Made by a program: the position numbers and the translations under genes. Positions 12,721 to 63,128 of a DNA stretch of 64,000 nt are shown one piece after another. How positions within the stretch are numbered: position 1 is the first letter of the stretch; each line of letters begins with the position of its first letter. The DNA is from Octopus vulgaris. Lineage: Eukaryota. Below the pieces are notes generated by a model. It was not told where the DNA came from and searched no databases. It worked only from the letters and a program-made list of their open reading frames with translations. The stretch lies in contig OX597831.1 of assembly GCA_951406725.2 (NCBI GenBank), forward strand, positions 49,476,001 through 49,540,000. The letters are read 5' to 3'.

Positions 12721-13116
12721 CACACACTCCTTTTCTCTTTTACTCTTTAATATGTTTCAGTCATTTGACTGTGGCTATGCTGGAGCACCGCCTTTAGTCG
12801 ATCGAGCAAATCGACCCCAGGACTTATTCTTTGTAAGCCTAGTACTTATTCTATCGGTCTCTTTTGCCGAACCGCTAAGTTACGGGGACGTAAACACACC
12901 AGCATCGGTTGTCAAGCGATGTTGGGAGGGGGGAAAACATATACTCGCACATACATATATATATATACATATATACGGCGGGCTTCTTTCTGTTTCCATC
13001 TACAAAATCCACTCACAAAACTTTGGTCGGCCCGAGGCTATAGTAGAAGACACTTGCCCAAGATGCCACGCAGTGGGACCGAACCCGGAACCATGTGGTT
13101 CGTAAGCAAGCTACTT

Positions 13117-15140
13117 TATTTCATCATATTTGCCATAAAGGCAGTATTTAGAGTATAGTAGCTTTGCGGGCTGGACAAGGACATTAATGAAATGAATGTT
13201 AACGAAACAAAGATGATAAGGATGGGAAATGACAAAAGCGTCCGCCGATTTTGCTTCTCTAAAACATTGTTCTTTGAAAACAAACACAAAACGAGGTATT
13301 AAACTTCTTACAGTTTTTACAATTTAAAAAAAATTTTGGACTTCACAGTCCATTACAAATAATGACATAGTTCACAAAACTGAATCATCCTCCCCGACCA
13401 GGCTGTACGCTACCCTTAGGCCTTGCTCCAGATCCAGGTCGGCGCCCCAGAATGCAAATCTGAATATGTCCTTCGAGAAGACGCCCATCACACTGAACAT
13501 ACCGACATCCTTCATAGTCACCTGCGAAGGCCAATCTTCGTCCCCTGTCCAGGGCATGGGTTCCTCTCCGGTCATCTAGCTTCTCTACGAAGCTCGGTAC
13601 TGCTCCTCCTTTCTGGAAAAAGATGACAAAATCATCTTTCCTCCTTCTGGAAGGGGCCGCTGTTTCCTCTGTCGCTTCCACACATCCCGCCGACAAAGTT
13701 TTCGGGCGTGCCTGCGATTCACCATCAACCGCCGGCAATGTCCTGTTCTTCTTCTTTTTACGTTTCTTCTTTTCCTTCACGACAGGAGGATGGAGTTCAT
13801 CCCTCTTGTCTGGAAGTCCTTCCATTCCTCCCGCCAACTCAGGATCCATTGGTGGGCAGCCATTGTTACCCACCTTCTTTCTTTTTCTCCCTTTCTTTTT
13901 CGATGGGGTTGCCTCCCCTCGACTTTCTCCCTCTCTCCCTCCCCTCCAATGGGGGAGCAGAGAGCTCTTCTATTAACTGTTCCAGGACCTTTGCTTGGTC
14001 CCGGCGGCAGTTTTTTTTTATGTGGTCAAATTCCAGACACAGGTGACACTGGGTGGGTGGGGCTTCCCTCAAGGATCACCGGGTACCTGGAACCGGCCAT
14101 TGTTAGAAAATCTGGCAAAACCAGATCATCGGCTGATTGGGTCCATAGGGCCAAAATTGCTTTTGATTCTACCCAATCAGCCGCAGGGAGAATTCTGACA
14201 TTCAAGAGCCTGGCAGTGCTTCCACCCAGACCCCGACGGATAGTGTCTTCTAACCATTCGGGTTCTATACCGGGTGGCAACCCACACACCCAAGCTCTTG
14301 TCAGTCTCCTCCCTTCATAAATGGGGAGAAGCAAAATTTCCTCCCCTTCTAATGGTCTGCTCGCGAAATCCCGAGCCTTTGCAGGAGTGCCAAACAACAC
14401 ACTGTCGTGTATTTAACACCCCTTTGGATAAACTTAATCATTGGCAGGCACTCCGCCAACTCTTTTTCAATGTCTGTCTGCGAGAACACAGTGATGGTGT
14501 CAAGAACCTTAGAATAGGTTCTTAACATCACCGTTCTCTCAGAAAAATTTTGCAACCACTGTTTGGGGGCCACTATTTGCCACCCCAAAAGAGTATTTTT
14601 TGTTGCCATATTAACGAAAAATATATAAAATGTAAAATGTTCAACACAAAAGTTAAAAAATTAAAATACAAAAAAGAATGGAAAGACAGAGGAGAGAAAC
14701 AGAGCGAAGGAAGACAGTTCAAATGGCAACACAATTCTGCTACTCAGGTAAGCCACCGTGTTCCAGCACAAAATTTCGATTTTGGTTTCTCACAATTAAG
14801 TGAGACACAAACACACACAAAAAAACAAAAAAAAAACAGTAATTTTCCTGGCCGTCCCGGTACTCCCGGTCAAAATGGTAATCCACGGGCACAAAAACAG
14901 TCAGAAATACCAGTCAAAAAATAACAGTTAAAATAACACAATTTTCAGGAGGGATACGCCTCCCAAAACAAACTTCCCAGAACTAAGTGAGACTTTAAGC
15001 GCGACCACTAGCAGACAAATGCATGGAACCTCTTGTTCGAAAAATTAAATAATACGAGCAACAGACCCCACTAGGCCCCCGACATACACCGACGTGACTT
15101 CCACTGCGACAAAAAAAAAACGCGTCCACTCTGTACTGAA
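13117..15140 (-). mobile_element. ORF1-only non-autonomous non-LTR retroelement (L1/Tx1-like or related), 2024 bp
   Basis: 15-bp TSD GTAAGCAAGCTACTT (13102-13116) / GTAAGCAAGATATTT (15141-15155); 5' end TTCAGT; 3' end ...GATGAAATAAA; one frameshifted gag-like ORF; no room for RT or endonuclease. Confidence 0.8.
13372..14609 (-). pseudogene. Frameshifted retroelement ORF1 / gag-like nucleic-acid-binding protein (~400 aa reconstructed)
   Basis: Track ORFs 14349-14609, 14026-14400, 13866-14072 and 13385-13873 join into one protein with an RRM-like segment (WVCGLPPGIEPEWL), a CX2CX4HX4C knuckle (CHLCLEFDHIKKNC) and a basic K/R tract. Confidence 0.75.
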
Positions 15141-15170
15141 GTAAGCAAGATATTTACCACACAGCCACTC

Positions 15171-15249
<79 letters not shown>

Positions 15250-15339: not shown

Positions 15340-15747
15340 ATTTTTTTTTAATCGTTTACCCGTTTCAGTCATTTGACTTTGGTCATGCTGGGGTGCTGCT
15401 CTGAGAGGTTTTAGTTGAACAAATAGACTCTTGGACTTATTAATTTTGAAGCCTAGTACTTATTCCATATATATATATATACGCACATGTATATGTGTGT
15501 GTGTGCGCGCGCGCTAGAATGTTAGTTCTAATGTGAAGGTTGCAATCTCAATTTACGTGTAAAACATATTACTCTCCGGTAAGACTATTTTAAAATATGA
15601 GTCATTTGTTATGCACTTTCAGGTTTCAATGTCTATATTTATCAGATGTCACTGGTAAACCAAAAGCCCTACTCAGCTCCCATGTAACTATTCAAAGCTC
15701 CTTTTCCTTCATTGTCAGTTCAATGATAGCTAGATTAAAGGTAAGAG

Positions 15748-44148: not shown

Positions 44149-50386
<6,238 letters not shown>

Positions 50387-59169: not shown

Positions 59170-60420
59170 ATCAAAAAAAGGGTGAAGAATGCGTTGAAAT
59201 CCAACCTGAATGCCAAAACTTTGATTATCCTAACGAATATCTGGGCAGTTGCGGTGGTCAGATATAGTGCGTCCACCCTCAAATGGACTAACGAAGAAAT
59301 ATCAACACTGGATAAAAGGACGAGAAAGTTGTTGACGCTGCATGGGGCGCTACACCCTACGGCAAACGTAAACAGACTATACACGAAAAGAAAGAATGGT
59401 GGCAGAGGACTAATTAGTATAGACCATTGTATAAAGAGTGAAAGGGGAATGCTTGCGAGTATTTGATAAATAGTAATGAAGATCTGCTGCAATATGCTGC
59501 GAAAGATATGGGTGTACATGCAGATGAAATGATGGACAAGGAAGAGTTTAACTAAAAAGCTGAGGAGTAGAGAAAATACCTTCTTATTATGAGAATGCAC
59601 GGACAGTTTGAAAGGAATACACAAGACGTTAAGAATAATTTCAGTATCGAGGACATGGCTTGAGCGAGGTGATGTGAAGCGTACCACTGAAAGCCTGATC
59701 CTTGCTGCACAAGACCAGACTCTCGCTACCAAGTCAGTGAAGTATAACATCTATAAAACTTCTGATACCCAGACATGCAGACTCTGTGGAAAGAGTGTGG
59801 AAAATGTGACCCACTTGGTAAGTGGATGTGAGATCCTTGCACAAAAAGAATACAAGCTCCGCCACGAAAATGTGTGAGTGTGTATCTTCATTGGCTCTTA
59901 TGCCGTGAATACCAATATGAAGTAACAGAGAACTGGTATGAGCATGTACTAAGTAAAGTTATGCAGGAGGGTAGAAAAGTAACGATACTCTGGGACTATG
60001 TTTTTAAGACGGATCGTGTAATCGAACACCATCGGCCGGATATTGTCATATGGAATAAGAGAGACAAATACTGTCAGATCATTGATGTAACTATACCAAA
60101 TGACATGAATTTTGTGAGTATAGAGGTTGAAAAAATCACCAAGTACTCCGAATTGAAAGTGGAAATGCCAAGACTGTATGGATTGCGAAAGGGTAATGTA
60201 AAAGTGATACCATTGGTGATCGGAGCGTTGGGCTCAATCCCATTGAAACTTCAGAACTTCTTAAGGCAAATGGAAATCCCATGCAAGATCGATGTCTTGC
60301 AAAAAGCAGCCTTATTGAGCAGAGCGCACATCTTAAGGAAAGTATTATATGACTGAGGTCCTTGTTGTGACTTGACATATGACTAAGGACTCCGGTGCAT
60401 TTTCACCTACACTGTGTTAC
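59170..60420 (+). mobile_element. R4/Dong-clade non-LTR retrotransposon, 5'-truncated pseudogene (post-RT, CCHC, restriction-like endonuclease)
   Basis: RLYTKRKNGGRGL, AAQDQ, CRLCGKSVENVTHLVSGC, RHENV, RPDIV, IIDV, KITKY, PLVIGALG; several stops and frameshifts; followed by (AAT)/(AAC)n. Confidence 0.85.
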
Positions 60421-62066: not shown

Positions 62067-62775
62067 TTTTTTTTTCTAGTTTCAGCTCAGAGGTGCGGCC
62101 ATGCTGATGCACTGCCGTTTTGTGCTACACTGTTATTGCGACGAACCTCGTCTAATATGTGGCACTTGGTGAAGAATGGAGTTTGATACAGCTACTCTCA
62201 TTTGCACCTCTTGCCGTGAGGTAGGTTCATCTGGGACTCTTGAAAGATGTCCAACTTTGATTTAAAAACCGCTACATCTACTTTGTGCAAGTTCCTCAGA
62301 CTCTTTGGGAGAATATTAAAAAGCTGTGGGCCCTTGAAACCCAGGCTGTAGCAGAAGCTGGTCCTGAAGCGTGATGGCATTGCTGGGATCTTTGGCACTA
62401 TGCAGTGTCGTCCCGTTCTAGCATTGGTGTAGCTTACAATGCCAAAATTTGGCACAATTCCTTCCAGGATCTTCCAGACATATATTACTGCATACCTCTC
62501 CCGTCTTCTATCCAGGGAGTAGAGTCTTAGCTGTTTCAACCTTTCCCAGTAGCTGAGCTGTTGCAAAGAGACGATCTTCTTTGTGAATCTTCTCTGGATT
62601 GCTTCAAGGTCCGCTGTTAATTTTACACTGGTGGGTGACCATAGCTGTGAGCAGTAATCCAGGCGACTGAGGACGAATGTCCGCCAGAGGACCATCATGG
62701 TTTCCTTATCTCTGGTTCTGAATGTTCTTCGGATCCACCCAGCCAGTCGTCTGCACTTTGTCGCCATCCTGGTAA
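62067..62775 (-). mobile_element. CR1-clade LINE, 5'-truncated (ORF2 C-terminus, 3' UTR, A-rich tail)
   Basis: ORF 62198-62782: SRLDYCSQLWSP, LEAIQRRFTK, LSYWERLKQLRLYSLDRRRER, FNILP; 3' end CAGCATGGCCGCACCTCTGAGCTGAAACTAG(A)n. Confidence 0.9.
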
Positions 62776-63128
62776 TGTGCATTATATATCTTTTATCCTT
62801 ATGTTTTATGTTTATATATATCTTTTATCCTTATGTTTTATGTTTATATATTTATATCCAAATTTTTATATATTGTTTTTATATATTTTATATATTTTTA
62901 TATATATGCTTATATATATTTTTGATTTTAACTTTTTCTTTATCCATATGATTATATATCTTTATCTACCTCTTAGTGTATATGGACATATGATGTGTAT
63001 ATAAGCAAATGGATTTATATGTGGGAGTATTTTTTTATATGTATAAAAATGTCTATCATTTAGTGTGTAATTGCGTAGTATGCAAATATACGTATGTATA
63101 TATTTGTATATGTGTGTATATGGGTATG

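Follow-up and report, generated by a model that had tools for sequence, protein, structure and literature searches.

An old ORF1-only retrotransposon lineage at one site in the head of an octopus SINE, and the L1/Tx1-type LINE that likely copies it in trans

An insert of about 2 kb in the genome of Octopus vulgaris (GCA_951406725.2, contig OX597831.1, forward-strand positions 49,476,001 to 49,540,000, a stretch of 64,000 nucleotides here called the window) encodes an ORF1/gag-like protein and neither an endonuclease nor a reverse transcriptase. The locus raises the question of whether such an insert is the product of a one-off deletion or belongs to a family that lacks ORF2 altogether, and which enzyme would copy it in the latter case. 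The insert and its surroundings comprise the following features (window coordinates):

13117..15140, minus strand: full-length but decayed copy of an ORF1-only non-autonomous non-LTR retrotransposon, 2024 nt; the closest other copy is 83% identical
13372..14609, minus strand: ORF1, about 412 codons with four frame changes, from the ATG at 14609 to the stop at 13372
14060..14570, minus strand: region coding for two predicted tandem RRM domains; approximate bounds, mapped by alignment from an intact relative
14007..14048, minus strand: single CCHC zinc knuckle, CX2CX4HX4C, read from the sequence; the Pfam zf-CCHC match is weak in relatives
13372..13640, minus strand: folded C-terminal domain of ~85 aa, variable between subfamilies, predicted in an intact relative (pLDDT 76-89 over residues 331-415)
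14610..15140, minus strand: 5' leader, 531 nt; 5' ends differ among subfamilies
13117..13371, minus strand: 3' UTR, 255 nt, without poly(A)
13131..13143, minus strand: hairpin with a 4-bp stem and a 5-nt loop, common to the tail of the autonomous LINE; two-sided changes at 4 of 4 pairs among 25 tails
13157..13164, minus strand: 8-nt tail motif complementary to the target, of putative role
13102..13116, minus strand: 3' copy of the target 15-mer, which is original SINE sequence
15141..15155, minus strand: 5' copy of the apparent target site duplication (TSD), with about 10 nt of duplicated target (15155-15146) and 5 nt probably encoded by the element (15145-15141)
15156..15173, minus strand: 5' part of the host SINE head, A-box-like
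12733..13101, minus strand: rest of the host SINE, with a B-box-like motif, body and tail

An earlier note, made from the letters of this DNA alone, had described a complete 2-kb element with one frameshifted ORF of ~400 aa, a CCHC knuckle and a K/R tract. This description was borne out for the minus-strand insert, whose ORF1 consists of five frame blocks with changes near 14400, 14063, 13940-13870 and 13566, and no sequence similar to an endonuclease or reverse transcriptase was found downstream of it. Some details had to be corrected. The RRM-like segment is real, but two RRMs are predicted on the intact relative instead of one. An AATAAA is present at the end, but its last letters come from the start of the flanking repeat, and no poly(A) tail follows. 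The proposed 15-bp TSD is a genuine direct repeat (13102-13116 and 15141-15155, identical at 13 of 15 positions), but the last 5 nt on its 5' side are most likely the element's own. Likewise, the TTCAGT that had been read as an Inr-like 5' end exists, but judging from young relatives it is probably not the start of the RNA, and the true 5' end of the window copy would lie at about 15145. The two flanks of the insert are the two halves of one SINE head; this sequence-specific target, along with the arrays and the hybrid TSD described below, had been overlooked. An LTR or proviral origin was rejected, with terminal repeats absent and copies 5'-truncated.

A DNA search of the octopus genome, in which 40 of 3072 candidates were scored, gave 77 matches. 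Among the 30 loci retrieved, several were full length at 75-83% identity and many were 5'-truncated with the same 3' end, and many copies shared the junction of ORF1 and 3' UTR. The 113 best matches of a protein search included a young subfamily whose ORFs, 409-418 aa long, are intact. ORF2 followed ORF1 in none of 68 non-redundant ORF1 copies examined, 10 of which had been recruited via the junction pattern and are hence ORF1-only by construction, the remaining 58 not. Tail and target terminated 62 of the 68; three had a tail-like motif with another flank, two were tail-less, and one locus was too short. The family shows the hallmarks of target-primed reverse transcription (TPRT), namely a fixed 3' end, 5' truncation, target duplication and no LTR. 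The insert is thus one decayed copy of a large, old ORF1-only retrotransposon lineage with intact young copies elsewhere, and the suggestion that a non-autonomous family supplies its own ORF1 protein gains support from the family itself, from selection on ORF1 (see below) and from the consistent lack of ORF2.

In a tree of 30 ORF1 cores, the window lineage formed a single clade with support 100/100 and a stem length of 1.69 changes per site, separate from every autonomous ORF1 sampled; deeper branching was poorly supported. Two other ORF1-only elements formed a second group (support 93/92), so that ORF2 was probably lost at least twice. This second lineage is represented by L143 (G000:C4:80136000-80145999) and L144:1775-2998 (minus strand), with ORFs of 472 aa and 408 aa; the L144 copy sits at the same SINE target, and L143 is a tandem array with a period of about 1755 nt and a different junction sequence. 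At least eight subfamilies with unrelated 5' ends occupy the same target, and they are mosaic: subfamilies A and B differ by a dS of 1.27 in the core and of 0.07-0.18 in the 3' half. A comparison of L093 with L080 likewise revealed chimeric subfamilies, with unrelated-looking 5' halves on nearly identical 3' halves. Very short derivatives occur at the same target as well (L202, L034 and L057), one internally deleted so that its 5' and 3' ends meet, one consisting of the tail alone, and one whose 5' part is inverted. Named protein relatives of ORF1 came from O. sinensis, O. vulgaris and O. bimaculoides; one member of the ORF1-only clade (P0001) is annotated as the Octopus sinensis gene LOC115225585 with three protein accessions. 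The young subfamily was also found in sequencing runs of four organism codes, none of them listed as RNA; contigs of one run guessed to be RNA cover it, which is no measure of expression.

The ORF1 protein is predicted to consist of two RRMs and one CCHC knuckle. AlphaFold2 modelled the ORF1 core from 77 sequences with a pLDDT of 91, and the best Foldseek matches of this model were the tandem-RRM proteins hnRNP A2/B1 and A1 (E about 1e-4). Using VIA-align, core residues 14-103 were superimposed on a single RRM with a best Z of 8.6 (rmsd 2.8, 80 residues) and residues 100-186 with a Z of 7.6 (rmsd 3.0, 79 residues). The combination of RRM and CCHC corresponds to the type I ORF1 described for Tx1-type elements in the accessible part of PMC5203782. 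When the whole ORF1 of an intact relative was modelled, the N-terminal half had a pLDDT <50 and residues 331-415 reached 76-89; for this C-terminal domain, Foldseek gave no match at E 0.001, the best VIA Z was 4.3 and the ESM Atlas yielded nothing, which says neither that it is novel nor that a counterpart is absent. Pfam scans returned no significant match for the window ORF fragments and no Transposase_22 in these fragments or in the relatives. In protein comparisons, ORF1 matched a LINE ORF1 at 25% identity over 200 aa (E 2e-16).

The ratio dN/dS (Nei-Gojobori, first 205 codons) was well under 1, at 0.08-0.39 in 28 of 28 pairs of eight subfamily representatives, many with dS >1; in close pairs the values are biased downwards by the choice of intact ORFs for their openness. 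For the window copy the ratio was 0.16-0.25 in comparisons with four other subfamilies and 0.70 in one with a decayed member of its own, which is what one would expect of selection that works on source elements and not after insertion. Far weaker constraint than in the core was seen in the linker (0.39-1.51) and, inconsistently, in the C-terminal domain (0.17-1.88). These substitution patterns indicate that the ORF1 core is under purifying selection.

Where the elements insert is sharply defined. Among the 3' ends recovered by the DNA search, 22 of 25 were followed by AAGTAGCTTGCTTAC within three mismatches (chance about 7e-4 per end); three were off target, and one of these, L016, is flanked by a separate 16-nt duplication at a sequence resembling the target. 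In a pattern search for 5' ends, all 15 family ends were preceded by the target 15-mer, and 2 more matches were due to chance. The 15-mer belongs to the head of a SINE, where it presumably lies between A-box-like and B-box-like motifs, as judged by eye; Rfam found no tRNA match in this head. Genome-wide, 72,498 exact empty sites were counted. Exact junctions of tail and target numbered 730 and 366 for two SINE variants, with 0 for reversed controls, and about 1.5% of the sites overall are filled. The ORF1-only element is therefore site-specific for one base in the head of an abundant SINE. No similarity was found between the SINE copy in the window and the 3' UTRs of the LINE or the ORF1-only elements, which gives no support for the SINE as the LINE's own passenger. 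Just past microsatellites, window positions 15345-15470 hold part of another, older copy of this SINE tail. Elsewhere in the window, positions 45202-50264 (plus strand) hold a nearly intact Helitron with one break between two open frames, one of 775 aa (Helitron_like_N, E 5.5e-52, with STPR repeats) and one of 891 aa (PIF1, E 1.5e-63), and open frames at 59832-60356 (plus strand) and 62198-62824 (minus strand) resemble, by eye, C-terminal fragments of other LINE reverse transcriptases.

The earlier note had proposed to look for an autonomous LINE that shares the 3' end; such a LINE occupies the same SINE site. The end of an ORF2 was found at 4 of the first 30 junction loci, and the full partner element measures 5.44 kb, with an ORF1 of 467 aa and an ORF2 of 1133 aa, both open in locus L153. 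Its ORF2 contains an endonuclease (PF03372), a reverse transcriptase (PF00078) and a zf-RVT domain (PF13966); among solved structures human L1 ORF2p was closest (E 8e-67), compared with E 6e-20 for R2. Partner 3' ends were detected in 49 of 50 loci, 48 of which had been chosen by endonuclease identity, and 49 of 49 adjoined the target. ORF2 remnants at the same target site were 68-84% identical, and in two samples of 30 junctions, ORF1-only elements outnumbered ORF2 elements by 18:4 and 18:9. By its N-terminal APE endonuclease, reverse transcriptase and C-terminal zinc-binding domain, and by its closeness to L1 ORF2p, the partner belongs to the L1 clade in the wide sense. The label Tx1 is likely, given a type I ORF1 (RRM and CCHC) and target-specific insertion, both traits in the accessible descriptions of PMC5203782 and PMC3747384; the homologue searches gave no sequence named Tx1 as a reference. 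The first 30 nt of the partner hold a second, imperfect copy of the right part of the target (L061:3048-3090, plus strand). Two further 3' ends (L158 and L161) belong to another autonomous family, with about 65% ORF2 identity, whose tail folds alike; what follows them is identical in both copies but is not the SINE 15-mer, which suggests that this family has a fixed target of its own.

Partner and ORF1-only elements have only their last 27-44 nt in common (78-84%), the UTRs being otherwise unrelated, and their ORF1 proteins are 25-29% identical. Within the shared tail, two-sided changes occurred at the four pairs of the hairpin in 2, 4, 3 and 1 of 25 tails, which are related and not independent. 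Stem-loops of this kind at the 3' end are a mark of stringent LINE recognition in the accessible text of PMC3747384. A motif of 8-9 nt complementary to the target was present in most tails including the partner's, and was absent in the second ORF1-only lineage. Shared tail and target suggest that the ORF1-only elements are mobilised in trans by the ORF2p of the partner. Since the window subfamily is old (83% to its nearest copy) and the intact partner young, the actual helper of the window copy was probably an older relative.

To characterize the junctions, both copies of the 15-mer were compared in 43 full-length partner copies (7 of 50 were dropped with an end missing), that is, in young relatives and not in the window subfamily. 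The 5' copy ended in CTAAC, the element's variant, in 43 of 43 cases, whereas in 6 of them the 3' copy carried the alternative; at position 13, every one of these 6 discordant copies followed the element (p 0.03). An extra T around positions 9-11 was seen in 12 of 43 5' copies versus 0 of 43 3' copies (Fisher p 2e-4), with 31 of 43 5' junctions lacking an extra base. Extra-base variants occurred in ORF1-only families as well and marked filled sites, in 9 of 15 (first 15 of 80 matches) and 16 of 20 cases (of 21 matches) versus about 1.5%; of 20 loci chosen from the 80, all but one were filled, and 18 of these 19 had no extra base at the next 3' junction. Private target mutations (positions 4, 8 and 10) were present on both sides in three copies (L102, L247 and L008). 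In L245, position 8 differed between the sides, so the boundary between target-derived and RNA-derived sequence is not sharp, and truncated copies matched the target at their 5' ends over 0-16 nt, several over 7-11, so that the position of the top-strand cut must vary. These junctions are most simply read as about 9-10 nt of genuine duplication, with 5 nt or more contributed by the RNA, a reading extended to the window copy by analogy with its relatives. As the 5-nt end of the 5' repeat follows the element and not the target, insertion likely rebuilds the site. The RNA may start at position 10-11 of the 15-mer, or further upstream with annealing to the overhang; the DNA fits either.

Five array regions were mapped, one of which consists of seven ORF1-only units ahead of a full LINE; in others, up to five families occur together. 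Array units are parted by the 15-mer, and the SINE halves stand at the outer ends. Units within one array were 98.8-99.9% identical, compared with 99.1-99.7% to a copy on another chromosome, and two neighbour pairs in one array reached 99.9% and 99.7%. With identity within an array close to that between chromosomes, sequential insertion and some local duplication are both possible.

We interpret these observations as an old ORF1-only lineage fixed on one SINE base, likely copied in trans by an L1/Tx1-type LINE residing there and likely rebuilding its target, and assign this reading a probability of roughly 0.85. The element would make its own two-RRM/CCHC RNA-binding protein, which would bind its own RNA, and the partner ORF2p would bind the 3' hairpin tail. 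ORF2p would then nick the bottom strand at the SINE site and prime reverse transcription, with the top-strand cut about 9-10 nt further on. The RNA would begin with the final 5 nt or more of the target 15-mer; because it would carry this end, the new 5' junction would read as a full target, later copies would land in front, and arrays would grow at their 5' side. A broader picture, which we offer tentatively and with slightly less than even odds, is that of a self-renewing landing pad: the LINE and several independently derived ORF1-only parasites would start their RNA inside their own target, each insertion writing a fresh target ahead, so that the SINE base would be the interstitial counterpart of the Drosophila HeT-A/TART telomere array. 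The parasites would outnumber the helper, swap protein modules, and have retained a divergent Gag, to which a further domain has been added, as a means of competing for the enzyme of the helper.

Could the copies instead be recent internal-deletion products of the local autonomous LINE, with ORF1 as passive baggage? The common target, the shared last ~40 nt and the homology of ORF1 would fit, but an ORF1 so diverged from the partner's, its place in a separate long-stem clade, purifying selection between subfamilies at dS >1, and UTRs that are otherwise unrelated have already largely refuted this explanation, and we regard it as very unlikely. The flanking of nearly all copies by the same SINE sequence might also mean that the element rides in the SINE and that the composite is retrotransposed as a unit, the site preference being only apparent. 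Such a composite has a very slim chance of being right: 5'-truncated copies stop at varied points yet abut the same base, at least eight subfamilies with unrelated 5' ends share the site with an autonomous LINE, private mutations distinguish the flanking SINE copies and are in some cases mirrored in the duplication (L102, L247 and L008), and the off-target copy L016 has a duplication of its own.

More consideration is due to a version that accepts family and helper but takes the 15-mer as an ordinary TSD, the arrays as the result of unequal crossing-over or assembly error, and the 5' variants as repair noise. The 31 full-length partner junctions without an extra base and the two nearly identical array neighbour pairs speak for it; the discordant position-13 cases, all toward the element, the concentration of extra-base variants at filled sites with their absence from the next 3' junction, and the mixing of unrelated families within arrays speak against it, and on balance we consider it unlikely. 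A processed pseudogene of a host gene for an RNA-binding protein, a possibility the earlier note had raised, is next to impossible: the tandem-RRM fold does resemble hnRNP A1/A2 and the annotation of Octopus sinensis lists one relative as a gene, but poly(A) is absent, the target is fixed, junctions number in the hundreds, the nearest proteins are LINE ORF1s with host RRMs only 9-21% identical, and no intron-containing single-copy parent gene was present among the best 113 matches.

The preferred reading, a trans-copied ORF1-only lineage on a SINE target, extends the small number of LINE groups from which ORF1-only parasites have sprung, and places these in a sequence-specific context. With an intact helper and several parasite subfamilies side by side, the question of what makes such parasites retain ORF1 can be approached directly, through cis-preference and ORF1 swapping. 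The asymmetry of the junctions offers a genomic handle on 5'-end joining in site-specific LINEs, and targeted gene insertion could profit from an intact sequence-specific endonuclease/reverse transcriptase whose 15-nt target is defined.

ORF1-only LINEs and transposon-targeting Tx1 elements are each known; their combination was not found in print, in that a search of largely open-access literature, without Repbase and Dfam, turned up no description of an ORF1-only element of this group that is directed to a SINE. A recent annotation of O. vulgaris lists 13 recently active L1-Tx1 families; the words ORF1, target and non-autonomous do not occur in its main text, and its repeat library may already hold the present families as L1-Tx1 entries (PMC13282606). 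According to the accessible parts of PMC5786205 and PMC5753468, ORF1-present non-autonomous LINEs are known in the Jockey, L1 and CR1 clades. The octopus family belongs with this type, as exemplified by HAL1, HeT-A and Ag-Sponge, in that lack of ORF2 is a family trait, TPRT features are present and a LINE-like ORF1 is under selection; it is not HAL1 proper, which implies mammalian L1 descent and a Transposase_22-type ORF1. Like HAL1 of mammals, as far as these two sources describe it, it is an ORF1p-only derivative of an L1-clade LINE with several independent origins, here at least two. HAL1 differs by its mammalian coiled-coil/RRM/CTD ORF1, whereas the octopus element, in a mollusc host, has the type I arrangement RRM-RRM-CCHC; unlike HAL1, it also has a stem-loop tail without poly(A), a sequence-specific target and arrays. 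Ag-Sponge (CR1 clade, Anopheles) is likewise an ORF1-present non-autonomous LINE but belongs to another clade, and target specificity goes unmentioned in the accessible text of PMC5786205.

HeT-A and other ORF1-only Jockey elements of Drosophila also need the ORF2 of a co-located partner, share head-to-tail arrays with it and have founded new ORF1-only families, with repeated origins reported for the telomeric elements (accessible text of PMC5786205 and bioRxiv 10.1101/2025.06.09.658640). They differ in belonging to the Jockey clade and residing at chromosome ends, whereas the octopus elements are L1/Tx1-type, interstitial and directed to SINE sites defined by DNA sequence. Among Tx1 elements, too, insertion into other transposons has been described, together with passengers and tandem insertions: the accessible part of PMC4494074 describes Xenopus Tx1 in Tx1D, crocodilian Tx1-Mar with SINEU-3 in Mariner-N4_AMi, and Keno in U2 genes. 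As in octopus, an APE-type LINE inserts in another repeat, non-autonomous passengers share its target, and tandem insertions arise around the TSD. The targets named there are DNA transposons, LTR elements, RNA genes and microsatellites, whereas the octopus target is the head of a SINE, and the Tx1 passengers described are non-coding SINEs, whereas those of the octopus encode an ORF1 under selection.
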